Assembly: GCA_017938695.1 (NCBI GenBank)
Contig: JAGBBA010000057.1
Location: forward strand, 506 to 64,505
Direction: 5' to 3'
From: Clostridia bacterium
Lineage (GTDB): Bacteria; Bacillota; Clostridia; Christensenellales; Aristaeellaceae
DNA length: 64,000 nucleotides
The notes below the pieces were generated by a model. That model was not told where the DNA came from, did not search any database, and saw nothing but the letters and a program-made list of their open reading frames with translations. This document shows positions 18,573 through 35,610 of the stretch, piece by piece. Within the stretch, counting starts at the first letter, position 1; the number at the start of each line of letters is the position of its first letter. A program made the translations under genes and the position numbers.

Positions 18573-18646
18573 CATTGATTTTTTGCCAAATTGATGTATA
18601 ATAAATGCCGTACCCAATCACCAAGCGAATCGAAAGGAAGAGAAAC

Positions 18647-19354: not shown

Positions 19355-19365
19355 TTCGCAATCAA

Positions 19366-19407
19366 AAGCCCTCCGCATGATTCACTCATGCGGAGGGCTT
19401 CTTTTTT
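19366..19407 (+). terminator. rho-independent terminator
   Basis: 15-bp stem aagccctccgcatga/tcatgcggagggctt followed by a T-run. Confidence 0.9.
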
Positions 19408-19409
19408 GT

Positions 19410-20048
19410 TCATTTGATTCTTTTCCCTGCGGCGATGTAGAAAACCGGGCGGGCCCTGTCGCCTGTCTGCTGGTATACCAGCGAGTACCCCTGCGGTACA
19501 AGGCCATAGCGGCCATTCAGCCTATCAAGGCAGCGCAGCACACCTTCGAAATAAGCATCTGTTGGCTGCCCGGCAGGCTGGATCACCAGATGGCATGCCC
19601 ACCGGAGCTGCGGATGCTCCGTCACGCACACGCCGTCATTGCAGAAAACCACGCTGCCAGCCGGGCCGGTGCAGTCCTCCACCATGACGTGATCCGTCAA
19701 CAGGTGGAAGTGCACCTGCTGCACCTCCTGCCGCTTTCCTCCATTGGCAACCAGCGTGAAGCCATCGTGATAGGCAGGATGCTTCGCCCGTATCGCCTGG
19801 ACTGCATCCCATATCTTGATGAAATCCCCGGCATGCTCTGCCATGTGCAAAAGCGTCTGCACCGGCTTGCGGGGTGAGATGATCACATGGTTCGGGTAGG
19901 CAGGCCGGGGATGCTCAAAGGCAAGGATATCCTTGCTGCAAAACACCTTTTTCACCGGGATCGCCCAGGCGCAGTACCGGAAGGCCAGGCCCACCGCCCT
20001 GCCCATCCATGGTGCCTTTGCCAGCCTGAACAGCAGCTGCTTCACCAT
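19410..20048 (-). CDS. HIT-like domain protein
   Basis: HVIISPRKP and a degenerate histidine triad QQVHFHLLT. The C-terminal half looks like a second degenerate HIT fold. Confidence 0.45.
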   Translation of the reverse strand: MVKQLLFRLAKAPWMGRAVGLAFRYCAWAIPVKKVFCSKDILAFEHPRPAYPNHVIISPRKPVQTLLHMAEHAGDFIKIWDAVQAIRAKHPAYHDGFTLVANGGKRQEVQQVHFHLLTDHVMVEDCTGPAGSVVFCNDGVCVTEHPQLRWACHLVIQPAGQPTDAYFEGVLRCLDRLNGRYGLVPQGYSLVYQQTGDRARPVFYIAAGKRIK

Positions 20049-20070
20049 GCTTTCACCCCCCGCCGTGCAA

Positions 20071-20994
20071 TCATTCGCTGATGAAATCCTCCACGCCGTT
20101 CAGCGTGACGAAATAAGGATCGCGGTACACCTCGCGCAGCTTTTCATCGGTGTTGAATTCGTCCGAGGTCAGCCAGCGAGTGTGCCAGGTCATGAACCAC
20201 ACCCAGGGAGCCTTTTCTTCCTCCATCTGGGTACGGCTGGGAATCTCGCCATTCTCGTGATAGCAAATCGGCATGCCTTCCGGCGCAATGGCCGCGCACT
20301 TGCGGTACAGTTCGCCCTGGGCACCGCCCTGGTAGCTGTCGCCGCCCAGGATGTCCACGCAGTCGTCCCCGGGGTACCAGGGCTGCAAATCCCCCGGCGC
20401 ATCGGAGAAGCCCAGCACCCAGATCAGGTTGTTCAGCCCGTGCAGGTTGGTGTAGCGGTCGTACATCAGCCGCCAAAGCTTCACAAAGCCCTCTGCGCCG
20501 CCCCGGCCCCACCAGAACCACTTGCCGTCCATCTCATGGAAGGGCCGCCACAAAACGGGAATGTTCATCCGCTGCAGCCGCTTCAGGTACGGCACGGCCC
20601 TGTCCATGCCCTGCAAAAGAGCGGCATGGGCCTCAGTGCCTTCGGTAAAGGCGTTGTCCCAGTCCAGCTCATCCTCCTTGGACTGCATGTAGGACGAGGC
20701 AAAGTCCACGCCCGTGTGCCAGCAGATGGTCACAATGCCGCCCCGGGCATGCCAGTCCATGGCGCGGCGCACCACGCCCTGGAAATCGTTGTCGATGAAA
20801 TCCAGCCCGCGGATGGCCGGCATGCGGCCCGTGCGCATCAGCAGGTAGTTGATCTCATGCTCCGTAGTTCCGCACCAGCCGGATTCCATCTGCCCCGTCA
20901 GGCAACGCTTTCCCTGCAGGGAACAAATATAGTCATACAAACGCTGTGCCACACCCATGGCATTGGGATTGCAAAGCTGTCTTGCCATTGTCAT
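20071..20994 (-). CDS. glycoside hydrolase family 26 (beta-mannanase-like), no signal peptide
   Basis: GH26 signatures WRPFHEMDGKWFWWG and the conserved Trp/His/Glu context. Cytoplasmic N-terminus. Confidence 0.8.
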   Translation of the reverse strand: MTMARQLCNPNAMGVAQRLYDYICSLQGKRCLTGQMESGWCGTTEHEINYLLMRTGRMPAIRGLDFIDNDFQGVVRRAMDWHARGGIVTICWHTGVDFASSYMQSKEDELDWDNAFTEGTEAHAALLQGMDRAVPYLKRLQRMNIPVLWRPFHEMDGKWFWWGRGGAEGFVKLWRLMYDRYTNLHGLNNLIWVLGFSDAPGDLQPWYPGDDCVDILGGDSYQGGAQGELYRKCAAIAPEGMPICYHENGEIPSRTQMEEEKAPWVWFMTWHTRWLTSDEFNTDEKLREVYRDPYFVTLNGVEDFISE

Positions 20995-21107
20995 TTCCTC
21001 CCAGTTGGTTGTTATCCGCAGTATAGCAGACTAACGGCATGTTAGGCAAGGGGGTGAATGGTCGCTTCTCAATCATTTCAATTTTTACAATAAATTTTCG
21101 CAAAGCA

Positions 21108-21136
21108 TTGAAAGATTGCATTTGTTGGTATATAAT
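21108..21136 (+). promoter_or_regulatory. sigma-70-type promoter
   Basis: TTGAAA, a 17-nt spacer, then TATAAT. Confidence 0.6.
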
Positions 21137-21184
21137 AACAGAGAGTTGACCAGGCACGCTTACCTGGAACAAGGAGGAAGACAA

Positions 21185-22024
21185 ATGAACGCCTTGAATA
21201 TCTATGCCTTTGCCGACGAGGCCTCCGGGCAGATCGCCAAGCAGATTGCCGCCATGCAGCGCAATGGCCTGAACGGCCTGGAGATCCGCGGTGTGGACGG
21301 CCAGAACATCGCCGATATTTCTGTGGAAAAAGCCCGCGAGGTGCGCCGCAAGCTGGACGACGTTGGCCTCACCGTGTGGAGCATGGGCTCCCCCATCGGC
21401 AAGATCGGCATCGAAAGCGACGGCTTTGCCGCCCACCTGGACAAGCTGCGCCATGTGCTGGCCCTGGCGGATGTGCTGGGTGCCAGAAACGTGCGCATGT
21501 TTTCCTTCTTCGTGCCGGAAGGCAAGGCGGCGGAGTATCGCGGCCAGGTGCTGGATCAGATGGGCCAGATGCTGGACGTGGCCCGGGGCAGCGGCATTGC
21601 GCTGTGCCACGAGAACGAAAAGGGCATTTACGGCGATATGGCCGACCGCTGCCATGAGCTGATGACCACCTTTCCGGAGCTGGCGGGCGTGTTCGACCCG
21701 GCCAACTTCATCCAGTGCGGCCAGGATACCCTAGAAGCCTGGGCACTGCTGAAGAATCGCATCAAGTACCTGCACATCAAGGATGCGCTGCCCAACGGCA
21801 AAGTGGTGCCCGCCGGCAAGGGCATCGGCCATGTGAAGCACATTCTGGCTGATTTCCGCAGCTGCGGCGGCACCGCCGTGTCCATCGAGCCCCACCTGAG
21901 CGTGTTCGACGGATTGAAGGATCTGGAACAGGCCGGCAACCGCACGGAAGTGGACAAGTTCAGCTACGCCAGCAGCGACGCAGCCTTCGACGCAGCCTGT
22001 GCTGCCCTGAAGGATCTGCTGTAA
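21185..22024 (+). CDS. sugar phosphate isomerase/epimerase (xylose-isomerase-like TIM barrel)
   Basis: AAGGAGG RBS. Family-typical LCHENEKG and IEPH metal-ligand contexts. Confidence 0.75.
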   Translation: MNALNIYAFADEASGQIAKQIAAMQRNGLNGLEIRGVDGQNIADISVEKAREVRRKLDDVGLTVWSMGSPIGKIGIESDGFAAHLDKLRHVLALADVLGARNVRMFSFFVPEGKAAEYRGQVLDQMGQMLDVARGSGIALCHENEKGIYGDMADRCHELMTTFPELAGVFDPANFIQCGQDTLEAWALLKNRIKYLHIKDALPNGKVVPAGKGIGHVKHILADFRSCGGTAVSIEPHLSVFDGLKDLEQAGNRTEVDKFSYASSDAAFDAACAALKDLL

Positions 22025-22034
22025 TAAGGAGGAT

Positions 22035-23216
22035 ATGACCATGGAAAAGATTCGTCTTGGTATCATTGGCATCGGCAACATGGGCAGCGGCCACGCCTGC
22101 CGCGTGGTGGACGGCGAGTGCCCTGATTTTGTGCTGACTGCTGTGGCGGACGTGAACCCCGCCCGCAAGGACTGGGCTGCCAAGCGCCTGGGCGAGAACG
22201 TGGCGTTCTTTGATACGGCGGAGGCTATGCTGGACAGCGGCCTTATCGATGCCTGCATCGTGGCTACGCCCCACTATGACCATCCCGGTCTGGCCATTGA
22301 GTGCATGAAGCGTTCCATCCATGTGTTGGTGGAAAAGCCCGCCGGTGTGTACACCAAGCAGGTGCGTGAAATGATGGCCGTGGCTGACCAGCACCCCGAG
22401 GTGAAGTTCGGCCTGATGTTCAACCAGCGCACCAACCATGTGTACCGCAAGGCCCGTGAGATCGTGCAGAGCGGCAAGTATGGCCAGATCCGCCGCACCA
22501 ACTGGATCATCACCGATTGGTATCGCACCCAGTATTATTATGACTCCGGTGCCTGGCGCGCCACCTGGGCGGGCGAGGGCGGCGGCGTGCTGCTGAACCA
22601 GTGCCCCCACCAGCTTGACCTGTGGCAGTGGATCTGCGGCATGCCCGTGAAGGTGCAGACCCACATGAAGTTCGGCAAGTGGCACGACATCGAAGTGGAA
22701 GATGACGTGACCACCTATGTGGAATACGAAAACGGCGCGACCGGCGTGTTCGTCACCACCACCGGCGATGCCCACGGCACCAACCGCTTTGAGATCATGA
22801 TGGACAAGGCCAAGCTGGTGGTGACCTATGGCGGCATCGAGCTGAAGGAGTTCAGCGTTTCCGAGCCCGAATGGACCGCCACCTGCAAGGAAGGCTTTGC
22901 TACCATGCCCGCCGAGGATATCCAGGTGGAAACCGACGGCAAGAACGAGCAGCACAACGGCGTGATCAACGCCTGGGGCGGCGCGATCCTGCGCGGTGAA
23001 CCCATGATCGCCGACGGCCGCGAGGGCATCCATGGCCTGATGCTGTCCAACGCCATGCATCTTTCCGCCTTCCTGGGCAAGGAAGTGGAGCTGCCCATCG
23101 ACGAAGACCTGTTCTATGAGGAGCTCATGAAGCGCGTCGCCACCTCCCGCCACAAGACCAACACCGTGGAGGCTGTGGTGGCTGACCTGAGCAATACCTT
23201 CAGCGGCTCCAACTAA
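22035..23216 (+). CDS. Gfo/Idh/MocA-family oxidoreductase
   Basis: N-terminal Rossmann motif LGIIGIGNMG and the EKP motif (VLVEKPAG). Confidence 0.88.
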   Translation: MTMEKIRLGIIGIGNMGSGHACRVVDGECPDFVLTAVADVNPARKDWAAKRLGENVAFFDTAEAMLDSGLIDACIVATPHYDHPGLAIECMKRSIHVLVEKPAGVYTKQVREMMAVADQHPEVKFGLMFNQRTNHVYRKAREIVQSGKYGQIRRTNWIITDWYRTQYYYDSGAWRATWAGEGGGVLLNQCPHQLDLWQWICGMPVKVQTHMKFGKWHDIEVEDDVTTYVEYENGATGVFVTTTGDAHGTNRFEIMMDKAKLVVTYGGIELKEFSVSEPEWTATCKEGFATMPAEDIQVETDGKNEQHNGVINAWGGAILRGEPMIADGREGIHGLMLSNAMHLSAFLGKEVELPIDEDLFYEELMKRVATSRHKTNTVEAVVADLSNTFSGSN

Positions 23217-23245
23217 GCCAGCCCATGCCGCAAAGGAGCAGCCCC

Positions 23246-24106
23246 ATGAAAGATCATCCCGTTTGGCGGTTTGATGACCAGATGCCTGAGGGGCGGGAGT
23301 TCGAGATCTATCACGCCACCAACACCACCCCTCAGCCCACCATCTACCAAAGCCACCATTATTACGAGCTTTATTTCATCCTGCGCGGCTCCATCCGGGT
23401 GATCGTGGAAGAAACAGACGTAAGCCCGGTGCTGGGCGATGCGCTGATCTACCCGCCCCACTGCATGCACCGCGTGACCCATACTGATCCGTCCCAGCCC
23501 TACGAACGCTTCTACCTTTACCTGTCCAGGGATTTCCTGCTCTCCATCAGCACAGAAGGGTATAACTTCGTTGAGGTGCTGGATCGCCTGACCGGCAGCA
23601 ACCGTTTTTGCGTCCATCCTGGCAGCCAGGCGGTGCTGGAGCTTGTCCCCATGACGGATGAGATCATCGAAGCGGCCAGGGATACCTCCCCTGCTGCCCT
23701 TCTGGCCAACCGCTGCCGGATGACCATCTACCTGATCCGGCTATTGCAGCTGCTGGAGGAAAGCGTGACCTCGACAACCGAAGGCCCGGCCTCCCGCATG
23801 AATGAGCTGATCCGCTACATCAACCAGAATGCCGCCCAGCCCCTTTCGCTGGATCATCTGGCGGAGGTGTTCGGCATCAGCAAGTATGCGCTGCTGCATG
23901 AGTTCAAGGACTACACCGGCATGTCCATCCACCAGTACATCCTGACGCGGCGCATCATCCTTGCCCAGCAGATGATCCAGCAGGGCGTCAAACCCCGGCA
24001 GGCCTGCGAACAAAGCGGCTTTACCGATTACACCAGCTTCTACCGCGCCTTCAAGGCCCGGACGGGCAGATCGCCTGCGCAATACAGCAAAACGCAGGCT
24101 GAATAA
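23246..24106 (+). CDS. AraC-family regulator (cupin sensor + HTH)
   Basis: N-terminal cupin-like region and C-terminal HTH (FGISKYALLHEF ... GFTDYTSFYRAFKARTGRSPAQY). AAAGGAG RBS before the ATG at 23246. Confidence 0.85.
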   Translation: MKDHPVWRFDDQMPEGREFEIYHATNTTPQPTIYQSHHYYELYFILRGSIRVIVEETDVSPVLGDALIYPPHCMHRVTHTDPSQPYERFYLYLSRDFLLSISTEGYNFVEVLDRLTGSNRFCVHPGSQAVLELVPMTDEIIEAARDTSPAALLANRCRMTIYLIRLLQLLEESVTSTTEGPASRMNELIRYINQNAAQPLSLDHLAEVFGISKYALLHEFKDYTGMSIHQYILTRRIILAQQMIQQGVKPRQACEQSGFTDYTSFYRAFKARTGRSPAQYSKTQAE

Positions 24107-24126
24107 CACACCAAAGGAGAATTGGT

Positions 24127-25359
24127 ATGCACAAGAAAGTGGCTTTTCTGCTTGCTATGATGCTGTTCATCAGCATGCTTCCGGTTTCCGGCCTCGCGCT
24201 GGGTGAAAACGGCAAAACCAAGGACGACTATGTTTCCCTGGACAGCCTCGCCCGGGAGCACGGCTTCGTGATGGGTGCCAGCTACAACTACAACCAGTGC
24301 AAGAGCAACCCCGCCTATATGGATCTGGTCAAGACCCATTTCTCTTCCATCACCTGCACCAATGAAACCAAGGCCTACTCCCTGCTGGATCAGAAGGCCA
24401 GCAAGGCCGCCAAAGACGGCATGCCGGTGATGAACTACTACCAGGCCGACAAGATGATCCAGTGGGCCCAGGACAACGGCATGAAGGTTCGCGGCCATGT
24501 GCTGGTGTGGGACGCCTACATGTGCGACTGGTTCTTCCGCGAGGGCTATGACAGCAAAAAGCCCTACGCCGATCAGGAAACCATGCGCGCCCGCACCAAG
24601 TATTATATCGAGCAGGTGATCACCCACTTTGAGGAAAAGTTCCCCGGCGTGATCTACTGCTGGGACGTGGTCAACGAGGCCATCGGCGACAACGCCAAGG
24701 AATGGGACAGCAAGGATGAACGCCACCTGCGCACCATCCGCAGCGGCGTGGATAACCTGTTCAAGACCCACGTGGGCGACGACTATGTGGAGTTCTCCTT
24801 CCTCTGCGCCAAGGACACGGTGGAAAAGCTGGGCACGGACATCAAGCTGTTCTACAACGACTACAACATGTTCTTCTCCGATAAGCGCAGTGCTGCCATT
24901 GCCCTGGCCCGCTCCATCAACACCTATGCCAAGGATGAAAACGGCAACTACCGCCAGCTGATCGACGGCATGGGCATGCAGGGCTACATCGGCGGTTACG
25001 GCAAGCAGCAGGACTGCCTGGAGGATTCCCACATCACCCGCATCGAGGCCTCCATCCGCCTGTACGCCAAGGAAGGTCTGGAAGTGCACATCACCGAAAT
25101 GGCCGTGCGCAACTTCCAGAACGACGATGCCACCGTGGCCCTCCACGCCGATTTCTACGGCCGCCTGTTCGAGATGTTCAAGAAGGTCAACAGCGGCGAC
25201 GAAAAGCCCTTGACCTGCGTGGCCATCTGGGGCGTGACCGACGCCCCCACCGCCACCGGCTACAACTACAACCTGATCAGCCCCTACGGCGGCCTGGTGA
25301 CGGAGAAGTATCAGATCAAGACCTCCTTCGACACCGTGCACAGCGTGATGAGCAAGTAA
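24127..25359 (+). CDS. secreted glycoside hydrolase family 10 (endo-1,4-beta-xylanase)
   Basis: Signal peptide. GH10 acid/base WDVVNEA and nucleophile ITEMAV. Confidence 0.88.
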   Translation: MHKKVAFLLAMMLFISMLPVSGLALGENGKTKDDYVSLDSLAREHGFVMGASYNYNQCKSNPAYMDLVKTHFSSITCTNETKAYSLLDQKASKAAKDGMPVMNYYQADKMIQWAQDNGMKVRGHVLVWDAYMCDWFFREGYDSKKPYADQETMRARTKYYIEQVITHFEEKFPGVIYCWDVVNEAIGDNAKEWDSKDERHLRTIRSGVDNLFKTHVGDDYVEFSFLCAKDTVEKLGTDIKLFYNDYNMFFSDKRSAAIALARSINTYAKDENGNYRQLIDGMGMQGYIGGYGKQQDCLEDSHITRIEASIRLYAKEGLEVHITEMAVRNFQNDDATVALHADFYGRLFEMFKKVNSGDEKPLTCVAIWGVTDAPTATGYNYNLISPYGGLVTEKYQIKTSFDTVHSVMSK

Positions 25360-25529
25360 ACGAAGGCGAGCAGGTGGGCGCATGAAAGAATCAATATGCT
25401 TCTCCTCCTGAAAGCAAAACTTTCTGGCGTATTTGATGTTAAAACATCAGACCATGGATATTCAGTTGTAAAAGGAGTAGCAACTGAGGATCCTGTGTTA
25501 CGAATTCAACAAAGCGTATATTTTCCCAT

Positions 25530-25577
25530 AAAAAAACTGTGTGCAGAGAACGCTAATCCTCCGCACACAGTTTTTTA
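25530..25577. terminator. bidirectional terminator between convergent genes
   Basis: actgtgtgc/gcacacagt stem flanked by an A-run and a T-run. Confidence 0.8.
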
Positions 25578-25581
25578 TATC

Positions 25582-27024
25582 TTACGCTTCGTTTTCCTCG
25601 GTTACGCGGCACAGGGCCAGGGCGTCGCCGATGGTTTTTTCGTAGGCTTCGTGGCCGTACTTGTCCACTTCGCTCTTGTCCTTGGGGCCGTGGGTCAGGC
25701 AGCCCGCGCCGCCGATGCAGCCGCCGGTGCAGGCCATGCCCTCGATGAAGTTTTCCTTCAGCAGGTTCTTTTGCTTCTTCAGCAGAGCCACGCGGCATTC
25801 CTCGATGCCGTCGCAGATCACCGGGTTCACGATCAGGTCCAGCTTCTGCTCCTTGATGGCCTGCACCACGGAGTCGCTCAGGCCGCCGGAGCGGGCGAAG
25901 ATGCGGCCGAAGTAGCTGGCGTTGTCCAGCACGCCCACCTCCAGGGACTTCAGGTCCAGGTCGCGGCTGTCGATCCACGCCTGCAGCTCCTCAAAGGTGA
26001 GCACGCAGTCCACATGGGGCTTCACGTTCTCGCGCTGGGCCTCGGCCTTCTTGGCGGTGCAGGGGCCGATGAAAATCACCTTGGCGGTGGGGTCAGTCTT
26101 CTTGATGTAGCGGCCCAGTTCAGCCATGGGGGAATAGTTGTGGCTGATGTGCTGCTTCAGCGAGGGGAAGGACTTCTCGATGTAGGAAACAAAGGCCGGG
26201 CAGCAGCTGGAGGTGAGGAAGCCCTTCTCCGCCAGCTCCCGGGACTCCTTGTAGGCCACCATATCCGCGCCCAGGGCAGCCTCGATCACGGTGAAGAAGC
26301 CCAGCTCCTTCAGCGCGGTGATCACCTGGCCCACCTTCACATGCACAAACTGGCTGGAAATGGAGGGTGCCACCACGGCATACACGCGGTAATTCTTGTT
26401 GTGGTCGCTTTCGCGGATCATCTTGATGGCATCCAGCAGGAAGCTCTTGTCCTGCAGGGCACCGAAGGGGCACTGGTACACGCAGGCACCGCAGTTGATG
26501 CACTTGCCCTCGTCGATCTGCGCCACATGGTTTTCACCCTGGGAGATGGCCTTTACCTTGCAGGCGCGCTCGCAGGGGCGCACATGGTTCTGAATGGCAC
26601 TGTACGGGCACACGCTGGCGCACTTGCCGCAGTTGATGCACTTGTCGGGATCAATATGGGCGTGGTGGTTCTCGTCGAAGGAGATGGCATTGCGGGGGCA
26701 CACGCTGGCGCAGCGGTGGGCGATGCAGCCGCGGCAGTCGGGGCCTACGCGGTAGCCGCTGACAGGGCACTCGTCACAGGCGATGTCGATGACCTCCACG
26801 ATGTTGGGGTTGGTCTTGTCGCCGCCCATGGCCATCTTCACGCGCTCGGCCACAATGGCGCGCTCCTTGTAGATGCAGCAGCGCAGCTCACTCTTGGGGC
26901 CGGGGGAGATCAGCTTGGGAATGTCCAAATAGCAATCCTGCAGGGTGTCCTGATAGGCATGGCGGGCGACCTCGCGCAGAACCTTGTATTTCAGCTTCTG
27001 TACATAAGTGTCGAACAGTTGCAT
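25582..27024 (-). CDS. [FeFe]-hydrogenase-like protein (ferredoxin-type N-terminus + H-cluster domain; HfsD-like)
   Basis: Three CxxCxxCxxxCP-type motifs. H-cluster motifs TSSCCPAF, GPCTAKKAE and EGMACTGGCIGGAG. Confidence 0.85.
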   Translation of the reverse strand: MQLFDTYVQKLKYKVLREVARHAYQDTLQDCYLDIPKLISPGPKSELRCCIYKERAIVAERVKMAMGGDKTNPNIVEVIDIACDECPVSGYRVGPDCRGCIAHRCASVCPRNAISFDENHHAHIDPDKCINCGKCASVCPYSAIQNHVRPCERACKVKAISQGENHVAQIDEGKCINCGACVYQCPFGALQDKSFLLDAIKMIRESDHNKNYRVYAVVAPSISSQFVHVKVGQVITALKELGFFTVIEAALGADMVAYKESRELAEKGFLTSSCCPAFVSYIEKSFPSLKQHISHNYSPMAELGRYIKKTDPTAKVIFIGPCTAKKAEAQRENVKPHVDCVLTFEELQAWIDSRDLDLKSLEVGVLDNASYFGRIFARSGGLSDSVVQAIKEQKLDLIVNPVICDGIEECRVALLKKQKNLLKENFIEGMACTGGCIGGAGCLTHGPKDKSEVDKYGHEAYEKTIGDALALCRVTEENEA

Positions 27025-27045
27025 CTTCTGGTGCCTCCATTCAGC

Positions 27046-28230
27046 TTAGAAGTAGGATAGCCGGATGTGCTTGCCCATCTTTTCCAGGCATTCGGCCAAT
27101 TTGGTGATCAGCTGCTGCTTGATGGCGAAGTTGATGGGCAGATCCGGATTTTGATGGGCCGGGTTGATGGCGCGGCCCACGTAAAAATTGACGTCGGTGG
27201 CGTTTTCGAACAGCTCCTTGGCGATCAGGCTGGCACCGTCCTTGCGGGTGAGCCACAGGGGGGCCATCTTGGCCTGGTCGAGGAAGTCCTCGGCGTAGGC
27301 CAGCACTTTCGCCAGGGTGATCACGCCCTCGGTGGTCAGGTCAACGCCCTTGATGGTGCTGATGGGCGGCACCTCGGGGTCGTGATAGTCCAGCGAGGCC
27401 ACGATGGGCTGGTTGAGGTAACGGGAAACCACATTGCTGGTGGTGCCGCCGCAGACGATCTTGGTGCCCTTCTTGCCGAAGAACAGGTTCATCATCCGGG
27501 TATCGTCTTCCTTGTTTTCAGGCGGGCCCACCACCATGTTCACGGTATGGCGGTTGCGCACGCGGGCCACAGCGATGGTGGTATCGTCGCCAGGGCGGCC
27601 GCCGTAGAGCCTGTCGCACTCGTCGATGATCAGGCTGGCGGTGGACTTGGCGCTGTTCTCCGGCAGGTAGTTGGCCATGGCGTAATCCGCAATGGAATCC
27701 CTCGTCCAGCCGAAGTTCATGGTCATGCCCACACCGGCCCATTCCGCGCCGTCGCTCATGGCGATGAACAGGTCGTCCACCTCAATGGGGAAAGTGCTCT
27801 CCCAGATGGTCTTGCCGGCAATCACGCGGGTGGTGCGGGGATAGTCGAACACCTCGCCCTTGCGCAGCACGATGGTGGCCGGATTGTCAAACTGGATGAT
27901 ATGCGCCGTTTCGTTGTTGTGGATCTGCAGGATGGTAAAGGTGGAGTAGGCCACCTGGCGCACCGAGCACACTGGCAGCGTGCTGGCAATGGTGGATACG
28001 CACTCCTCCAGGGGGATGCCGCCGGCGATCATGGTACACAGGATCTTGGAGGTCAGCGTGGAGAGAATGTTGGCCTTCACGCCGCTGCCCAGGCCGTCGG
28101 CCAGGACCAGGGTCAGGTCCTCGTTGCCGCCGCCGTGCACCTCCACCTTGTCGCCGCACAGGGTCTCGCCTACGTGGTTCAGGCTGATCCAGCCCGTTTC
28201 AATCCAAAGATCATTCATGAGCCATCGCAT
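27046..28230 (-). CDS. SpoIIE/PP2C-family serine phosphatase
   Basis: CGDKVEV...VLADGLGSGVKA and MSDGAEW motifs. The start overlaps the hydrogenase stop by 20 nt (8 nt if the alternative ATG at 28218 is used). Confidence 0.85.
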   Translation of the reverse strand: MRWLMNDLWIETGWISLNHVGETLCGDKVEVHGGGNEDLTLVLADGLGSGVKANILSTLTSKILCTMIAGGIPLEECVSTIASTLPVCSVRQVAYSTFTILQIHNNETAHIIQFDNPATIVLRKGEVFDYPRTTRVIAGKTIWESTFPIEVDDLFIAMSDGAEWAGVGMTMNFGWTRDSIADYAMANYLPENSAKSTASLIIDECDRLYGGRPGDDTTIAVARVRNRHTVNMVVGPPENKEDDTRMMNLFFGKKGTKIVCGGTTSNVVSRYLNQPIVASLDYHDPEVPPISTIKGVDLTTEGVITLAKVLAYAEDFLDQAKMAPLWLTRKDGASLIAKELFENATDVNFYVGRAINPAHQNPDLPINFAIKQQLITKLAECLEKMGKHIRLSYF

Positions 28231-29887
28231 CCTTCAGTTTGGTGAGGGCGATCTGCGTTTCAGCGGTGGTTTCGCCCAGCAGCGACGCGATCTCCTGCAC
28301 GATGCGCATCTGCTTGTCGATCACCTTGTTGGTGATCTCCACCGTCTGCTGCTTCAGTTCGCTGCCCTGCAGGCGCAGCTGCTCCTGCTCGGTCACGTCG
28401 CGGATGAGGGTGATCACCACATGATACTGACGGTCGTAGAGGATGGTTTCATCCACATAGCGGCCGTAATCGGCCAGGTAGTGCTTGCAGGAGGTGGTGT
28501 GCAGCGCGGCGTTGACGATATTCACATAGGGTTCGGGGCTGAGGATGCGGATCACATGCTCGTGCAAAATGTCGTTGACATTTTTCAGGCCGAACATCTT
28601 CAGCGCGGAGGGGTTGATCTGCTGCACCACCAGATCCTCGTTCATCACGATAACGGCAGTGGGAGTATTGTTGATGATGGTATCGGAGAAGCTCTCCGCC
28701 TTTTCCTTCAGGAAGGGCAGGCACATTTCGATCTTGGCCTTGCCCTCCAGGATGGCGATGGCCTTGTCCCGGCAGGTGGGATAGCCGCAGCTGCCGCAGT
28801 TCAGCTCCTTCTCGGGGCTGGTTTTGCCCATCTTGAACAGCATATCGCGGATGGCGTCGCCGCCGAAATTCACACGGCGGTCGCCCTCGAAGGCGTAGGT
28901 GGTGCGGATGTTGGGCTTGTGCTCGATGACGTAGGGGGTCTCGCCGTTGCCGGAGAAGGTGTCCACGCGCATGGCACCCTTCAGGCGTCGCTCGGCATGG
29001 TCGCGGATGCAGGGGCCATTGACGCAGCTGCCCTCGCAGGCACTCATCTCGATGAACACCTTGCCGAATTCGCTGTTCTCGATCTCGTCAAACACGCCGC
29101 GGCAGTTGTCGATGCCGTCGATGGCGATGCGGCGGTAGCCCTCCACCTTGGCGGTGGCCTTCAATACGCCGCCGGTAGCCGGGTACAAGCGGGCCAGGGC
29201 GCCCTCGCTGGCAGGGTCCACATGCTCGTAGGGCAGCTCGATGCCCTCGGCGGCGAACCAGTCGGCCAGCTCGTCAAAGGTGAGCACAGCATCCACATAG
29301 CTGCTCTCGTCGCCCTCCTGCTTCTTGGCGATGCAGGGGCCGATGAACACCGTGTAGGCGTCGGGCTGCTGCTCCTTGATCAGCTTGCAGTGGGCCTCCA
29401 TGGGGGTCATCACCTTGGCCAGGTAAGGCAGCATGGCGGGATAGTACTTCTTGATCAGCATGTTGATGGAGGGGCAGCAGCTGGAAATGATCACATGCAG
29501 CTTGCCCTCGCGCATGATGTCGGCGTACTCCTCGCTGACCAGCTGCGCGCCAATGGCGGTCTCCTGCACCTCGGCAAAACCCAGGCCAGTGAGAGCCTCG
29601 GCGATGACGGACAGGTTGCGGATGCGGAAGTTGGCAATGAAGGACGGTGCCAGGCTGCACACCACGCGCTTGCCTGCGGCAATGGCGGCCTTCACCTGCA
29701 GCACGTCGTTGCGCACCTGCTTGGCCTTCTGGGGGCAGGTGACGTAGCAGCGGCCGCAGAGAATGCAGTCGTTATGCACGATCTCCGCGGTATCGTGGGC
29801 GAAGGTGATGGCCTTCACCGAGCAATCGCGGATGCACTTGTAGCAGTCGGTACAGTTGTTTTTGTTCAGATTCAGTATCTCTTGCAT
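28211..29887 (-). CDS. sensory-type [FeFe]-hydrogenase with C-terminal Cys motif and PAS domain (HydS/HfsB-like)
   Basis: 2x[4Fe-4S] N-terminus. H-cluster motifs SSCCPSI, GPCIAKKQE and EMSACEGSCVNG. An extra CGSCGYPTC motif, then a PAS-like region and a coiled C-terminus. GGAGGGG RBS. Confidence 0.85.
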   Translation of the reverse strand: MQEILNLNKNNCTDCYKCIRDCSVKAITFAHDTAEIVHNDCILCGRCYVTCPQKAKQVRNDVLQVKAAIAAGKRVVCSLAPSFIANFRIRNLSVIAEALTGLGFAEVQETAIGAQLVSEEYADIMREGKLHVIISSCCPSINMLIKKYYPAMLPYLAKVMTPMEAHCKLIKEQQPDAYTVFIGPCIAKKQEGDESSYVDAVLTFDELADWFAAEGIELPYEHVDPASEGALARLYPATGGVLKATAKVEGYRRIAIDGIDNCRGVFDEIENSEFGKVFIEMSACEGSCVNGPCIRDHAERRLKGAMRVDTFSGNGETPYVIEHKPNIRTTYAFEGDRRVNFGGDAIRDMLFKMGKTSPEKELNCGSCGYPTCRDKAIAILEGKAKIEMCLPFLKEKAESFSDTIINNTPTAVIVMNEDLVVQQINPSALKMFGLKNVNDILHEHVIRILSPEPYVNIVNAALHTTSCKHYLADYGRYVDETILYDRQYHVVITLIRDVTEQEQLRLQGSELKQQTVEITNKVIDKQMRIVQEIASLLGETTAETQIALTKLKDAMAHE

Positions 29888-29962
29888 GGTGACCCCTCCG
29901 GATAAACACTGCGACAGGGCTGACGCGTTTCACGCCAGCCCTGATGAATAGATTGCCGCTTT

Positions 29963-30202
29963 TTACAGCCGGGGAAGAACGTCCTTTTCAAAGAAATCCC
30001 GGGTGTCGGCCGGCGTGAGGGAGAAGGCCTCGCCGTCGATGGTGACGCACACGCCGTTCTGGCAGTTGCCCATGCAGAACTGGCCGGCCAGCTCGATCTT
30101 GTCGCTCAGGTTGTTCTCTTTTACCAGCTTCTGAAGATCTTCCACGATCATACGGGAGCCCTTCAGGTGGCAGCTGGAACCGATACAGATGGTGATTTTC
30201 AT
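29963..30202 (-). CDS. thioredoxin-like [2Fe-2S] ferredoxin (NuoE/HndA-like small protein)
   Basis: Cx4C ... Cx3C pattern (CIGSSC, CMGNC). AAAGGAG RBS favours the ATG at 30202. Confidence 0.75.
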   Translation of the reverse strand: MKITICIGSSCHLKGSRMIVEDLQKLVKENNLSDKIELAGQFCMGNCQNGVCVTIDGEAFSLTPADTRDFFEKDVLPRL

Positions 30203-30223
30203 GGTCAGCATCTCCTTTTGTGA

Positions 30224-30979
30224 TTACTGATAATCCACAACGTTGACCCAGGAAAGCAGGAACTCGCGCTCGTCGGCATTGCCCTTCACAGACTGGCTGG
30301 CTGCCACGATGGGCATCCACTTCTGCACATACTGCATGGCGGTATCGCTCTTCTTGCAGAACAGATGCAGATATTTCTTTGCCATTTCTTTGTCGCCGGA
30401 GAGGCAGAACAGCAGGTAGGTGCGGGCGGCATCAGCCGAGGCATTGCCCTGGGTGGCGTGGGACCAGTCCAGGATGTAGGGGGTGCCGTCCTCGGTGATG
30501 ATGATGTTGGAGGGGTTGAAGTCGCCGTGGCACACCTTGTTGTGCTTGGGCATACCCTCCAGACGGGTGTGCAGGTCGTAGCGGGTGGTGGCGTCCAGCT
30601 CCGTCTGGCTGATCTTGCGGTTCATCTTGTCCTTGAGCTTGTTCAGCATGGGGCAGGTTTTGCTGTGCATTTCCAGCTGCAGGTCCACCAGCAGCTCCAG
30701 GTATTCATCCTGGTGCTCGCCTTCGGTATCCTCCTGCATCAGCTGAGCAAGGGTCTTACCCTTGATATATTCGGAAACAATGGCCCATTTTCCTTCTACC
30801 ATGGTCACTTCCAGCACCCGGGGAATGTTCAGCCCGGTCTCCTCGATGCGGGCCTGGTTGAGGGCCTCGTTCAGCACGTCCGCCTTGGAATACTCGGCGT
30901 CGAACACCTTAACGCAGCGGTCGCCGTCGCGGTAGATGGTCTTTTTGTTGCGCAGGGCGATAACACGATCCAGCTTCAT
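30224..30979 (-). CDS. APH/choline-kinase-fold phosphotransferase (putative protein kinase)
   Basis: Catalytic loop HGDFNPSNIII, metal-binding ILDW and N-lobe CVKVF. AAGGAGG RBS lies in the 15-nt gap after adhE. Confidence 0.75.
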   Translation of the reverse strand: MKLDRVIALRNKKTIYRDGDRCVKVFDAEYSKADVLNEALNQARIEETGLNIPRVLEVTMVEGKWAIVSEYIKGKTLAQLMQEDTEGEHQDEYLELLVDLQLEMHSKTCPMLNKLKDKMNRKISQTELDATTRYDLHTRLEGMPKHNKVCHGDFNPSNIIITEDGTPYILDWSHATQGNASADAARTYLLFCLSGDKEMAKKYLHLFCKKSDTAMQYVQKWMPIVAASQSVKGNADEREFLLSWVNVVDYQ

Positions 30980-30994
30980 ATCTGTTTCCTCCTT

Positions 30995-33697
30995 TTACGC
31001 CTTGCGGCCCTTGCTGTAAACAGCTTTGATGGTATCGGTGGTGTCCTTCACGGGCAGGTCCTTCTCGGTGGGCATGGCCTGCTCCTCAAAGTGCTTGCCG
31101 TAGTAGGCATTCAGGTACATCTGCTTGATCTCGCTCATCAGCGGATAGCGGGGGTTGGCACCGGTGCACTGGTCGTCGAAGGCCTGCTCCACCATATCAT
31201 CGAGGTTGTCCAGGAAGGCCTTCTCGTCCACGCCGTACTCGGCGATGGTGTCCTTGATGCCCACCCTGTGCTTCAGGTCGTTGATCATGGCGATCAGGCC
31301 TTCCAGCTTCTGCTCGTCAGTGTCAGCCTTCACGCCCAGGTAGTCGGCGATCTCGGCATAGCGGGCCAGGGTGTGGGGATGATCATACTGGGAGAAAGTG
31401 CCCATCTTGGCAGGAGCCTCGCTGGCGTTGAAGCGCAGCACCTCTTCGATCATCAGGGCGTTGGCCACGCCGTGGGGCAGGTGGTGGAACGCGCCCAGCT
31501 TGTGGGCCATGGAGTGGCACACGCCCAGGAAGGCGTTGGCGAAGGCCATACCAGCCATGGTGGCGGCGTTGGCCATCTTCTCGCGGGCTTCCACATCGGT
31601 CTGGCCGTTCTCGTAGGCGCGGGGCAGGTACTGGAAGATGGTCTTCAGGGCCTTCAGTGCCAGGCCGTCGGTGTAATCGGTGGCCAGCATGGCGGCATAG
31701 GCTTCCAGCGCGTGGGTCACCGCGTCGATGCCGGAGGCGGCAGTCAGACCCTTGGGGGCGGACATATGGAAGTCAGTGTCGATGATGGCCATGTTGGGCA
31801 GCAGCTCGTAGTCGGCCAGGGGGTACTTCACGCCGGATTGCTCATCGGTGATGACGGCGAAGGGGGTCACCTCGGAGCCGGTGCCAGCGGAGGTCGGAAC
31901 CGCGATGAAGTAGGCCTTCTCGCCCATCTTGGGGAAGGTGTACACGCGCTTGCGGATGTCGATGAAGCGCATGGCCATGTCCATGAAGTCGGCTTCGGGA
32001 TGCTCGTACAGCACCCACATGATCTTGGCCGCGTCCATGGCGGAGCCGCCGCCCAGGGCGATGATGGTATCGGGCTGGAAGGCCGCCATCTGGGCCGCAC
32101 CGGCCTTGGCATTGGCCAGGGTGGGATCGGGCTGCACGTCAAAGAAGGTGGTGTGGGTGATGCCCAGCTCGTCCAGCTTGTCGGTCACGGGCTTGGTGTA
32201 GCCGTTCTGATACAGGAAGTTATCGGTAACGATGAAGGCCTTCTTCTTGCCCATGACGGACTTCAGTTCGTCCAGGGCCACGGGCAGGCAGCCCTTCTTG
32301 ATATAGATCTTCTGGGGGGTACGGAACCAGAGCATATTCTCCCTTCTTTCAGCAACGGTCTTGATGTTCAAAAGGTGCTTCACGCCCACGTTTTCAGAAA
32401 CGGAGTTGCCGCCCCAGGAGCCGCAGCCCAGCGTGAGGGAGGGAGCCAGCTTGAAGTTGTACAGGTCGCCGATGCCGCCGTGGGAGGAAGGAGTGTTCAC
32501 CAGGATGCGGCAGGTCTTCATGCGGGCGGCAAACTGGTGGAGCTTCTCCTGCTCGGTGGTTTCATTCAGGTAGATGGAGGAAGTGTGGCCGTAGCCGCCG
32601 TCCGCCACCAGCTGCTCGGCCTTGGCCAGGGCGTCCTCGAAAGAGGTTGCCTTGTACATGGCCAGCACGGGGGAAAGCTTCTCGTGGGCGAACTCCTCGC
32701 TCAGCTCCACGCTCTCCACCTCGCCGATGAGGATCTTGGTACCCTCGGGCACGGTGACGCCAGCCAGCTCGGCGATCTTCGCAGCCTTCTGGCCAACGAT
32801 CTTGGCGTTCAGGCCGCCGTTGATGATGATGGTCTTGCGGACCTTCTCGGTTTCCTCGGGGTTGAGGAAGTAGCAGCCGCGGGCAGCGAACTCGGCCTTC
32901 ACGGCTTCGTAGACACTCTCCATCACGATAACAGACTGTTCGGAGGCGCAGATCATGCCGTTGTCGAAGGTCTTGGAATGGATGATGGAGCTGACAGCCA
33001 GCAGCACATCGGCGGTATCGTCGATGATGGCAGGGGTGTTGCCGGCACCAACGCCCAGGGCGGGCTTGCCGGAGGAATACGCAGCCTTCACCATGCCGGG
33101 GCCGCCGGTGGCCAGGATGATGTCGCTCTCCTTCATCACGGTGTTGGTCATCTCCAGGCTGGGCACGTCGATCCAGTCGATGATGCCCTCGGGTGCACCG
33201 GCAGCCACAGCGGCTTCCAGCACCAGCTTGGCAGCAGCGATGGTGCAGCCCTTGGCCCGGGGATGGGGAGAAATGATAATGGCATTACGGGTCTTCAGGG
33301 CCAGGAGGCACTTGAAGATGGCCGTGGAGGTGGGGTTGGTGGTGGGGATCACCGCGGCGATAACGCCGATGGGCTCGGCGATCTTCTTCACGCCGAAGGC
33401 CTTGTCCTCCTCGATCACACCGCAGGTCTTGGTGTTCTTGTAGGCATTATAAATATATTCTGCAGCATAGTTGTTCTTGATCACCTTGTCTTCCACAACG
33501 CCCATGCCGGTCTCCGCCACGGCCATCTTGGCCAGGGAGATGCGGGCCTTGTTGGCAGCGGAAGCCGCCGCCAGGAAGATCTTGTCCACCTGCTCCTGGG
33601 TGTAGGTGGCAAAAACCTGCTGCGCCTTACGGGTACGGCCGATGGCCTCCTCCAGGGAAGCTACACTGTCAATGATATCGTAACGTTTCGTTTCCAT
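30995..33697 (-). CDS. adhE: bifunctional acetaldehyde-CoA / alcohol dehydrogenase
   Basis: 900 aa. N-terminal ALDH domain (catalytic Cys context FDNGMICASEQS) and a C-terminal Fe-ADH domain (GGGSAMDAAK, His-rich metal site). Confidence 0.97.
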   Translation of the reverse strand: METKRYDIIDSVASLEEAIGRTRKAQQVFATYTQEQVDKIFLAAASAANKARISLAKMAVAETGMGVVEDKVIKNNYAAEYIYNAYKNTKTCGVIEEDKAFGVKKIAEPIGVIAAVIPTTNPTSTAIFKCLLALKTRNAIIISPHPRAKGCTIAAAKLVLEAAVAAGAPEGIIDWIDVPSLEMTNTVMKESDIILATGGPGMVKAAYSSGKPALGVGAGNTPAIIDDTADVLLAVSSIIHSKTFDNGMICASEQSVIVMESVYEAVKAEFAARGCYFLNPEETEKVRKTIIINGGLNAKIVGQKAAKIAELAGVTVPEGTKILIGEVESVELSEEFAHEKLSPVLAMYKATSFEDALAKAEQLVADGGYGHTSSIYLNETTEQEKLHQFAARMKTCRILVNTPSSHGGIGDLYNFKLAPSLTLGCGSWGGNSVSENVGVKHLLNIKTVAERRENMLWFRTPQKIYIKKGCLPVALDELKSVMGKKKAFIVTDNFLYQNGYTKPVTDKLDELGITHTTFFDVQPDPTLANAKAGAAQMAAFQPDTIIALGGGSAMDAAKIMWVLYEHPEADFMDMAMRFIDIRKRVYTFPKMGEKAYFIAVPTSAGTGSEVTPFAVITDEQSGVKYPLADYELLPNMAIIDTDFHMSAPKGLTAASGIDAVTHALEAYAAMLATDYTDGLALKALKTIFQYLPRAYENGQTDVEAREKMANAATMAGMAFANAFLGVCHSMAHKLGAFHHLPHGVANALMIEEVLRFNASEAPAKMGTFSQYDHPHTLARYAEIADYLGVKADTDEQKLEGLIAMINDLKHRVGIKDTIAEYGVDEKAFLDNLDDMVEQAFDDQCTGANPRYPLMSEIKQMYLNAYYGKHFEEQAMPTEKDLPVKDTTDTIKAVYSKGRKA

Positions 33698-33753
33698 AAC
33701 GAACCCTCCTCACAACTGAGCCGCTGGCCGGATGCACGGTGCATCCCCTCGGC

Positions 33754-33771
33754 TCGTTAATATTTTAACAA
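33754..33771. promoter_or_regulatory. Rex-like operator upstream of adhE
   Basis: The minus strand reads TTGTTAAAATATTAACGA against the clostridial Rex consensus TTGTTAAnnnnTTAACAA (1 mismatch). It lies about 60 nt upstream of the adhE ATG. Confidence 0.5.
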
Positions 33772-33857
33772 AAGAGGGCGCGTTTGTGAAATCTGAAAAT
33801 GTTATAGGGTATGATCAATTTTCATATAAGGCAAAATTGGTCTGAAAGCAGAACAAA

Positions 33858-34778
33858 TCAGAGGTATCGTCTCCGGGCCTGGCACAGCTCGGTGATGAAC
33901 GCCTGATCCAGCGTGGTCAGCCGGTAGCCGTTGCGGTAGATCAGCACGTCCCGGTAAACGCGCTGGTTTTCCTTGCACACCTTCTGCACCAGGCCGTAGC
34001 GTTCCAGCAGCTTGTCCGGCACAGGGGAAATCCACATGAAGGTATCGGTGTTTTCGCTCAGCAGGTCAAACTGGCTGGCACGCTCGTAGATAAAGATGCG
34101 CCGGTCAATGTTATCGGGCAGCTCCTCCTTCACCACCTTGGACAGTGGCAGCGAGGGCACATAAGGGTCAGCATGGGCGATCTCGATATAGGGCCGCAGA
34201 TCCTCGAAGGTGATGTCCTCCTTCTGGGCCAGGGGGTGCTGGCGGCTCATCAGCAGCTGGTAGGAGAACTCGCAGATCATCTCGTAGGTGATCTCCTTCT
34301 CATCCAGCATGCTGCGGAAATACTGGTCGTAATTCTCCGCATAGCGGATGATGCCCAGCCGGAAATCATTCTCCAGCAGATTACGGATGGTGCGCTGGGA
34401 GTTGGTCTCCTTGTAGAACAATTCCGCACTCTGGTCAGAAAGCTGGCAGGAGAACTTTGCAAAGGCCTCGGAGATATAGCTGGCCCGTGGCACGGAAATG
34501 GAAAACCGCTGCTTGGGCACCGCAGGCTTCTTGTACATGTTCTCTACCTGGTCGATCTGCTGCAGGATGCTCTTGGCATACTGAATAAACTCTTCGCCCT
34601 CGGGGGTCAGAAGCATACCCTTCGCCGAGCGGTCGAAGATGGTGATGCCCAGGCCTGCCTCCAGCTCCTTGATCGAACGGCTCAGGTTGGGCTGGGCAAT
34701 CAGCAATGCCTGCGCCGCCTTGTTCAGCGAGCCCGCTTTCGCCACCTCAACAGCGTATTTCATGTGGAGGATGTTCAT
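33858..34778 (-). CDS. LysR-family transcriptional regulator
   Basis: N-terminal wHTH (MKYAVEVAKAGSLNKAAQALLIAQPNLSRSIKELE) and a LysR substrate-binding domain. Confidence 0.9.
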   Translation of the reverse strand: MNILHMKYAVEVAKAGSLNKAAQALLIAQPNLSRSIKELEAGLGITIFDRSAKGMLLTPEGEEFIQYAKSILQQIDQVENMYKKPAVPKQRFSISVPRASYISEAFAKFSCQLSDQSAELFYKETNSQRTIRNLLENDFRLGIIRYAENYDQYFRSMLDEKEITYEMICEFSYQLLMSRQHPLAQKEDITFEDLRPYIEIAHADPYVPSLPLSKVVKEELPDNIDRRIFIYERASQFDLLSENTDTFMWISPVPDKLLERYGLVQKVCKENQRVYRDVLIYRNGYRLTTLDQAFITELCQARRRYL

Positions 34779-34806
34779 CCTGCGTCACTCCTGCTCATGG
34801 TAATCG

Positions 34807-34851
34807 TAATAACTACATCTCTATTATAAAAGGGAAAACGGTGGAGTGCAA
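34807..34851 (-). promoter_or_regulatory. lysR promoter with overlapping T-N11-A-type inverted repeat
   Basis: On the minus strand: TTGCAC, a 17-nt spacer, then TATAAT. The TAATA-N10-TATTA dyad (34807-34826) overlaps the -10 element. Confidence 0.45.
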
Positions 34852-35151
34852 CCAGATAAAATGACCATTTTCACATCAAACATCTACACCAAAACTGGAT
34901 TTGTGATATAATATACCCATCCGGGCCATGAGGAGACCGAGGAAGAAATAAGGAAGCTCCAGGTCAGAAAACTGGTACCAGCAAAAGAGCCGTGTCGTCA
35001 ATTACCCCCGGTTATACGACACATTTACGACAATCGGGGGATAAACGACGCCAATATATGCGAAGTTATACGAAAAATGCAGTGAAAACCATCTGCTGCA
35101 CAAATGTTGTGAAGTTTAGTAAAATCAACGGTTTCAAGGAGTTTTGAGCAT

Positions 35152-35610
35152 ATGAAGAAAGTATTGTTCGTCTGCCACGGCAACATCTGCCGCAGCCCCA
35201 TGGCGGAGATGATCCTCAAGCACCTGGTGCGGGAGCGCGGGCTGGAAAAGCAGTTCACCATTGCCTCTGCTGCCACCAGCACCGAGGAGATCGGCAATCC
35301 GGTGTATCCGCCAGCCCGCGCGGAGCTGGCGCGGCACGGCATCCCCGTGGAGAAGCGAGGTGCCCGGCAATTGACCCGGGCGGATTATGCTGCCTACGAT
35401 CTGCTGATCGGCATGGATAACGCCAACATCCGCAACATGAACCGGATGCTGGGCGGCGACCCGGAGGGGAAGATCCACCGGCTGATGGACTTCACCAATC
35501 GCCCCGGCGAGGTGTCTGATCCCTGGTATTCGGACAGGTTTGATATTGCGTATCGTGATATCCTTGAAGGCTGTCAGGGTTTGCTGGCCCATGTGCTGGA
35601 GCAGCCCTGA
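35152..35610 (+). CDS. low-molecular-weight protein-tyrosine phosphatase
   Basis: CX5R(S) P-loop VLFVCHGNICRSPMAE and the DP general-acid motif (SDPWY). Confidence 0.9.
   Translation: MKKVLFVCHGNICRSPMAEMILKHLVRERGLEKQFTIASAATSTEEIGNPVYPPARAELARHGIPVEKRGARQLTRADYAAYDLLIGMDNANIRNMNRMLGGDPEGKIHRLMDFTNRPGEVSDPWYSDRFDIAYRDILEGCQGLLAHVLEQP

Follow-up and report, generated by a model that had tools for sequence, protein, structure and literature searches.

The window analysed here, a stretch of 64,000 nucleotides (nt) from the Clostridia bacterium assembly GCA_017938695.1 (contig JAGBBA010000057.1, positions 506 to 64,505), carries on its minus strand a compact group of six genes in which adhE, encoding a bifunctional aldehyde/alcohol dehydrogenase, is contiguous with genes for two [FeFe]-hydrogenases and a Ser/Thr phosphatase (Table 1). 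A first-pass annotation, made from the sequence by eye, had listed these genes in order as adhE, an APH-fold kinase, a NuoE-like [2Fe-2S] protein, a PAS-containing [FeFe]-hydrogenase (here HydS), a SpoIIE/PP2C phosphatase (here PP2C) and a second [FeFe]-hydrogenase-like protein (here HydA2). All six open reading frames (ORFs) are present in that order, and each of the domains assigned to them is matched by Pfam, namely Aldedh plus Fe-ADH in AdhE, APH in the kinase, 2Fe-2S_thioredx in the small protein, Fe_hyd_lg_C plus FeS and PAS in HydS, SpoIIE in the phosphatase and Fe_hyd_lg_C plus two Fer4 domains in HydA2.

Table 1. Genes and predicted signals of the adhE-hydS-hydA2 locus (window coordinates; aa, amino acids).
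Feature	Coordinates	Strand	Basis
LysR-family regulator, directly upstream of the operon, same strand	33858..34778	-	Pfam HTH_1 + LysR_substrate
Promoter-like site, TTCACA-17-TAAAAT with TG extension	33762..33790	-	consensus scan
Rex operator-like palindrome TTGTTAAAATATTAACGA	33754..33771		consensus scan
adhE, bifunctional acetaldehyde-CoA/alcohol dehydrogenase, 900 aa	30995..33697	-	ORF + Pfam + NCBIfam
APH/RIO-fold kinase, 251 aa	30224..30979	-	ORF + Pfam
Thioredoxin-like [2Fe-2S] ferredoxin, NuoE C-terminal-like, 79 aa	29963..30202 (alternative start 30211)	-	Pfam
GC hairpin in 75-nt spacer, without U-run	29914..29942	-	folding
HydS/HfsB-type putative sensory PAS-[FeFe]-hydrogenase, 558 aa	28211..29887	-	Pfam + alignment
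SpoIIE/PP2C Ser/Thr phosphatase, 390 aa	27046..28218 (alternative start 28230)	-	Pfam, fold
HydA2/HfsD-type monomeric catalytic [FeFe]-hydrogenase, 480 aa	25582..27024	-	TIGR04105
Intrinsic terminator, perfect long stem then U7	25530..25576	-	sequence + folding

The sequence supports the view that the six genes form one putative operon joining adhE to an hfs-like module, since one promoter-like site and one terminator bracket genes whose junctions are tight or overlapping, since each gene has a ribosome-binding site (RBS), and since the group is collinear with clusters reported to be co-regulated in Ruminococcus albus 7 and Clostridium thermocellum. Four of the five spacings originally given (15, 21, 75 and 21 nt) are reproduced, that of 21 nt between the kinase and [2Fe-2S] genes because the latter starts at the ATG at 30202, a start backed by its RBS, by alignment with R. 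albus and by a public gene call of 79 amino acids. The remaining junction, between hydS and the PP2C gene, had been given as an overlap of 20 nt and is more likely one of 8 nt: the phosphatase most likely starts at the ATG at 28218, to judge from homologues of 390 residues, the RBS spacing and a public call of the same length. The 8-nt overlap also occurs in R. albus and implies translational coupling of the two genes. A Shine-Dalgarno sequence precedes each of the six genes, and the RBS in the 15-nt junction between adhE and the kinase gene is strong. As the first-pass annotation had stated, there is no intrinsic terminator between the genes, in that the minus strand holds no terminator-like site there; the strong terminator that follows hydA2 has a predicted folding free energy (dG) of -29.8 kcal/mol (z -8.3). 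The promoter-like site, which is a consensus match only, heads the consensus scan with 10 of 12 matches and an extended -10 element, and lies 65 nt 5' of the adhE ATG. A further promoter-like site inside the PP2C gene (27923..27896, 9 of 12 matches) was set aside as chance, the region yielding about the same count as its shuffles.

To place this arrangement among other genomes we scanned a HydS alignment against one genome per species, retained the best 80 loci and located the remaining cluster proteins in them by tblastn. Loci with at least 4.5 kb of sequence upstream of hydS (n=59) were treated as informative on that side. A synteny search for adhE beside PAS-hydrogenase and PP2C genes had been suggested with the first-pass annotation. 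In the survey adhE is directly upstream in 31 of these 59 species loci, 29 of which also possess the kinase gene; the arrangement is far beyond chance. A SpoIIE gene follows HydS in nearly all of the 80 loci, HydA2 is encoded directly after PP2C in 56 of 69 informative loci, and rex is found upstream in 22 of 59. In 23 of the 59 loci neither adhE nor the kinase gene is present, and five genome loci combine the kinase with HydS in the absence of adhE. The closest relatives are Candidatus Limiplasma and Clostridia metagenome-assembled genomes (65-89% HydS identity), and the window itself comes from a metagenome scaffold of 65.8 kb. Both this survey and the kinase-centred one described below are biased in favour of closely related sequences (69-86% identity), and their loci lack phylogenetic independence.

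HydS is composed of an N-terminal 2x[4Fe-4S] ferredoxin-like domain, an H-domain, a four-cysteine Fe-S motif, a PAS domain and a C-terminal helix; PF04060 is matched at residues 362-391 (45.2 bits, cut-off 23) and the PAS family PF00989 at residues 402-473 (26.6 bits, cut-off 22.6). Both hydrogenases had been credited with the full set of four H-cluster cysteines, and on alignment all are indeed present. In HydS these lie in the motifs SSCCP (C138), GPC..K (C185, with K188) and AC..SC (C284 and C288), which are invariant in 7 homologues and correspond to C300, C355, C499 and C503 of the Clostridium pasteurianum enzyme CpI. Compared with CpI, HydS and its homologues invariably have G in place of M353, S in place of M497 and A in place of S319; the residue at E282 varies, and C299 is retained. 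The protein scores below the cut-off of the catalytic model (209 versus 450 bits). On these residues the active site of HydS is predicted to be of the sensory type. A search of solved structures for both hydrogenase types returned distant group A enzymes alone.

Two further regions of the module stand out by their conservation. The first is a 36-residue helix that follows the PAS domain of HydS (residues 517-552, 28232-28339; KQMR..QEIASLLGETTAET..AL..LK) and is near-invariant in HydS proteins with an overall identity of only 47%. Docking is its probable role, with the coupled phosphatase as a possible partner. The second is in PP2C itself. The N-terminal half of this protein, where Pfam SpoIIE is matched at residues 37-225, resembles SpoIIE and RssB-type PP2C structures and has invariant metal-binding Asp residues. 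The C-terminal 167 residues (27049-27549) form a highly conserved alpha/beta domain with an invariant VCGGTT motif, which when modelled alone reached a predicted local distance difference test score (pLDDT) of 88.7. This domain gave no Pfam match even at E = 10, no sequence match in the PDB and no significant PDB fold match, the best being methylglyoxal-synthase-like (E 0.017, template modelling (TM) score ~0.4). We infer that HydS and PP2C may touch each other through the conserved tail of the former and the C-terminal domain of the latter.

The 75-nt spacer that precedes hydS contains a stable GC hairpin (dG -31.5 kcal/mol, z -4.3). Its stem, GGGCTGRYG...CRYCAGCCC, is found at the matching position in five related Limiplasma-clade loci (L003, L005, L006, L007 and L010), with one compensatory exchange, from C-G to U-A, among these relatives. 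In contrast, clusters of the R. albus type have only ~10-30 nt between the [2Fe-2S] gene and hydS. The hairpin is not a canonical intrinsic terminator, as no U-run follows the stem in the window or in the relatives, nor is it a dispersed repeat, as the window holds no second copy of the motif, and it has no match to an Rfam family (scan of 25000-35500). It could serve as a processing, stability or attenuation element. The same Rfam scan of 25000-35500, examined for a riboswitch or known leader, gave only sub-threshold chance matches, mostly on the terminator.

The sixth gene differs from HydS in kind. HydA2 passes TIGR04105 (FeFe_hydrog_B1), the curated NCBIfam model for monomeric catalytic [FeFe]-hydrogenases, with 560.5 bits against a cut-off of 450, residues 4-445 covering positions 1-461 of the 462 in the profile, and R. 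albus HydA2 (L001, 11844-13280) matches the same model at 577 bits. With respect to CpI it keeps C299, C300, C355, C499, C503, E279, E282, S319 and M497 and shows the substitutions R286 to K and M353 to G, its catalytic and proton-relay residues being intact. The last four genes had been described together as matching sensory and hfsABCD loci; the sixth gene is of the catalytic HydA2/HfsD type and not a part of the sensor. As judged from its sequence it is a HydA2/HfsD orthologue, a predicted regulated output beside AdhE. The labels attached to this family do not agree, in that NCBIfam uses 'B1' for the HydA2 family and PMC6776011 uses 'group A1' for the ferredoxin-only hydrogenase of R. albus.

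The promoter region suggests how these outputs might be controlled. The Rex operator-like palindrome TTGTTAAAATATTAACGA overlaps the -10 hexamer of the adhE promoter and has one mismatch to TTGTTAANNNNTTAACAA, the operator consensus of clostridial Rex regulons. It is the sole match to that consensus at two or fewer mismatches in the 64-kb window, where 0.01 would be expected by chance. Of 15 related loci without rex in the cluster, 13 have an equivalent box 5' of adhE. The rex gene is itself a variable feature, being found in 16 of the 31 adhE-containing genome loci and missing from the other 15, and a tblastn search with R. albus Rex gave no match in the window. The operon promoter thus has a Rex operator-like box, with predicted binding of Rex, even where rex is encoded elsewhere. 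The LysR-family regulator directly upstream is 63% identical to the LysR protein at the matching position on the R. albus plasmid pRUMAL01, and 20 of 26 adhE-containing loci have a LysR gene upstream at a distance of no more than 900 nt. Just 5' of the -35 hexamer there is a perfect 7-bp inverted repeat, TGAAAAT-N17-ATTTTCA (33794-33824), which is a candidate site for the adjacent LysR regulator; within this region CCCTATAACATTTT is common to the window and locus L058.

AdhE passes the NCBIfam equivalog NF010378 (1393 bits, cut-off 951) and has the Pfam architecture Aldedh, Fe-ADH and ADH_Fe_C, that is, an N-terminal acetylating aldehyde dehydrogenase fused to a C-terminal iron-type alcohol dehydrogenase. 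The [2Fe-2S] protein (2Fe-2S_thioredx, 31.8 bits, cut-off 24.8) contains the motif Cx4C...Cx3C and shares 58% of its residues with one of the two R. albus copies and 46% with the other. The kinase matches APH at 61.8 bits and RIO1 at 37 bits, and its catalytic residues K24, E38, HGDxxxxN (D at 153 within HGD, N158) and D171 are conserved. The genomic company of this kinase was surveyed in a kinase-centred scan of metagenome contigs (loci L084-L163). adhE precedes the kinase gene in 49 of the 52 loci with an informative upstream flank, and the kinase is found without adhE in at most 3 loci. Where both flanks could be read, HydS is encoded downstream in 36 loci and in none of a further 16; adhE upstream is combined with HydS downstream in 35 loci, and 14 loci possess adhE without the hydrogenase module. 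These stand-alone adhE-kinase pairs are followed by unrelated genes such as those for NUDIX, peptidase, GlmS and SpoVA proteins (e.g. L114, 4349-7747, and L141, 4369-7747). The kinase thus looks more closely tied to adhE than to HydS and PP2C, and the operon looks like two separable modules that have been joined, adhE-kinase and 2Fe2S-HydS-PP2C-HydA2.

Taken with moderate confidence, the locus is probably a Limiplasma-like orthologue of the rex-adhE-kinase-2Fe2S-hydS-PP2C-hydA2 fermentation cluster known from R. albus 7 and C. thermocellum, which would encode two electron sinks and the signalling module that serves them. One sink would be AdhE, taking NADH to ethanol, and the alternative would be the ferredoxin-type HydA2/HfsD enzyme, passing electrons from reduced ferredoxin to H2. 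By analogy with work on R. albus and Thermoanaerobacterium we infer that, as H2 accumulates, disposal of NADH via the bifurcating hydrogenase would be blocked and Rex, encoded elsewhere in the genome, would then leave its operator. HydS may in turn relay H2 or redox state, by way of the PAS domain and the C-terminal helix, to the translationally coupled phosphatase PP2C, with the APH-fold kinase perhaps acting in opposition. The resulting change in phosphorylation of a target would cause AdhE and HydA2 to be made or activated, with a shift of carbon from acetate to ethanol.

Several observations weigh against this scheme. HydS keeps C299, which is absent from the HydS of Thermotoga maritima, and might for that reason have a higher rate of H2 turnover than the sensor already characterised. 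The search for rex in the window by tblastn having given no match, control by Rex depends on the operator. The hairpin before hydS could attenuate or process the mRNA. The closer association of the kinase with adhE than with HydS and PP2C is a poor fit to a simple HydS-kinase relay. Finally, adhE expression in Thermoanaerobacterium saccharolyticum rises, and does not fall, when hfsB is lost, and hfsC and hfsD are likewise required for high ethanol in that species.

It is conceivable, though in our view rather unlikely, that the operon is a metabolic unit whose genes are regulated together but do not include a dedicated H2 sensor, in which Rex alone, perhaps with LysR, controls transcription and HydS is an auxiliary or low-activity hydrogenase or a redox partner. 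HydS, the [2Fe-2S] protein and HydA2 would then make up one Hfs hydrogenase system, and PP2C would tune that complex and not adhE. The conserved Rex operator-like box on the promoter agrees with this, as do the retention of C299 and of all cluster ligands in HydS and the occurrence of the 2Fe2S-HydS-PP2C-HydA2 core without adhE in about half of the loci. In T. saccharolyticum, moreover, hfsABCD was identified as the main H2-evolving hydrogenase and deletion of the whole operon lowers hydrogenase activity, and a 2026 study considers that HfsABC may be a functional hydrogenase without HfsD. Against this reading, deletion of hfsB raises hydrogenase activity as well as adhE mRNA. The exchanges in HydS at M353, M497 and S319, with the variable E282, are typical of sensory enzymes, and a PAS domain and near-invariant helix beside an overlapping phosphatase gene are difficult to account for if the subunit is catalytic only.

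An unlikely alternative takes the operon as a fusion of the two separable modules, in which the kinase is mainly a partner of AdhE, acting by phosphorylation of AdhE or on an AdhE-linked small molecule, and PP2C is the opposing, H2-responsive phosphatase, so that ethanol formation would be controlled post-translationally. The distribution described above fits well with such a division, both in the near-constant position of adhE before the kinase gene, which persists in 14 of the 16 loci where HydS is absent, and in the HydS-selected genomes that possess neither gene. The conserved catalytic residues of the kinase and its short junction with adhE, with a strong RBS, point the same way. Phosphorylation of AdhE is nevertheless hypothetical, the APH fold also covers many small-molecule kinases, the five genome loci with kinase and HydS have no adhE, and the close relatedness of the loci in both surveys tempers the counts. 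A more specific version, in which the kinase is a dedicated AdhE partner opposed by HydS-controlled PP2C, giving an H2-responsive post-translational phospho-switch on AdhE (or HydA2) with the hairpin setting the stoichiometry between the two modules, we consider improbable.

Downstream of the operon (16677-25359) the window encodes functions for the use of plant polysaccharides: a binding protein of a sugar ABC transporter, a GH26 protein (mannanase family), a xylose-isomerase-like TIM barrel, a GFO/IDH/MocA oxidoreductase, an AraC regulator and a GH10 protein (xylanase family), the gene for the last of which converges on the terminator region of the operon. Long plus-strand ORFs opposite adhE, hydS and hydA2 (30365-33760, 27980-29905 and 25396-27060, of 1131, 641 and 554 amino acids respectively) have translations rich in Gly, Ala, Leu and Val and were rejected as artefacts of a coding strand with 60% G+C.

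Comparison with characterised systems begins with the HydS of T. maritima (Chongdar 2018; PMC10055695), which has the same domain plan as the protein in the window. In both, Gly stands at the position of M353 and Ser at that of M497, and residues of the proton pathway are altered. In contrast, the T. maritima enzyme has Ala (A131) at the position of C299, where HydS of the window and six aligned relatives keep Cys.

In the hfsABCD operon of T. saccharolyticum (GQ354412; Shaw 2009; Eminoglu 2017, PMC5707799), according to the literature, HfsB corresponds to the PAS hydrogenase (HydS), HfsC to the Ser phosphatase and HfsD to HydA2. Here adhE (Tsac_0416) is not adjacent to hfs, no kinase has been reported in the operon, and HfsA, compared by its published description, is said to be unlike known proteins and not a thioredoxin-like [2Fe-2S] protein. 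We considered Tsac_0415, beside adhE, as a possible kinase homologue and rejected it, as it is a genus-confined protein that is divergently transcribed. A regulatory effect of hfsB on adhE has been demonstrated by experiment in this organism, and deletion of hfsB raises adhE expression and ethanol in both Thermoanaerobacterium and C. thermocellum (PMC5707799). A relay from HydS through PAS to a kinase was proposed by Zheng et al. 2014, as cited in PMC5707799.

The C. thermocellum locus is closer in its organisation. It comprises rex (Cthe_0422), adhE (Cthe_0423), an aminoglycoside phosphotransferase gene (Cthe_0424), Cthe_0425, an Fe-S protein (Cthe_0426), SpoIIE (Cthe_0427) and hydrogenase genes (Cthe_0428-0431), and the block is co-regulated in transcriptomes (PMC3848806); in strain DSM 1313 adhE is Clo1313_1798 and hfs is Clo1313_1796-1793 (PMC5707799), with the kinase gene at Clo1313_1797, hydS at Clo1313_1795 and the PP2C gene at Clo1313_1794. 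By annotation, Cthe_0422-0431 (Clo1313_1799-1793) runs from rex and adhE through an APH-type kinase, a small protein and an Fe-S/PAS hydrogenase to SpoIIE, which matches the cluster considered here. The hydrogenase genes downstream carry annotations for a 24-kDa subunit of NADH dehydrogenase and for an Fe-only hydrogenase, which implies a multi-subunit enzyme, and the authors describe the structure of the operon as 'slightly different'.

The nearest counterpart is that of R. albus 7, which we found by a protein search of plasmid records. Plasmid pRUMAL01 carries on one strand the genes for LysR, Rex, AdhE, a phosphotransferase, two [2Fe-2S] proteins, HydS, SpoIIE and HydA2, with which the window is collinear, and the proteins are 63% (LysR), 75% (AdhE), 76% (kinase), 58% (2Fe2S), 47% (HydS), 57% (PP2C) and 68% (HydA2) identical. 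The window differs in having a Rex operator-like box but no rex gene within the cluster, a single [2Fe-2S] gene instead of two, and the hairpin-bearing spacer of 75 nt before hydS, where R. albus has ~10 nt. Greening et al. 2019 (PMC6776011) reported that an eight-gene cluster including the ferredoxin-only hydrogenase, AdhE and the sensory hydrogenase, which from the annotation appears to be the segment from Rex to HydA2 on pRUMAL01, is down-regulated 111-fold when R. albus is grown together with an H2 consumer, and they proposed co-transcription and direct sensing of H2.

The contiguity of adhE with the sensor genes had been put forward as a direct genomic link between H2/redox sensing and alcohol/aldehyde metabolism. 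The link is supported but it is not distinctive, as it has been published for R. albus 7 (PMC6776011) and can be seen in the locus tags of C. thermocellum (PMC3848806, PMC5707799). The cluster in the window is an ordinary further example of a described and widespread arrangement, common in gut Clostridia, and yields no new principle. Among genomic clues, the arrangement is the best to the way in which fermenting Clostridia, as the partial pressure of H2 changes, decide whether to form acetate plus H2 or ethanol. This choice is of central importance for hydrogen transfer between species in the gut and rumen, and for the engineering of ethanol yield. What the window adds to the R. albus and C. 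thermocellum clusters is their extension to an uncultured Limiplasma-like lineage, a conserved Rex operator-like box where rex lies elsewhere, and a modular picture of adhE-kinase joined to 2Fe2S-HydS-PP2C-HydA2.

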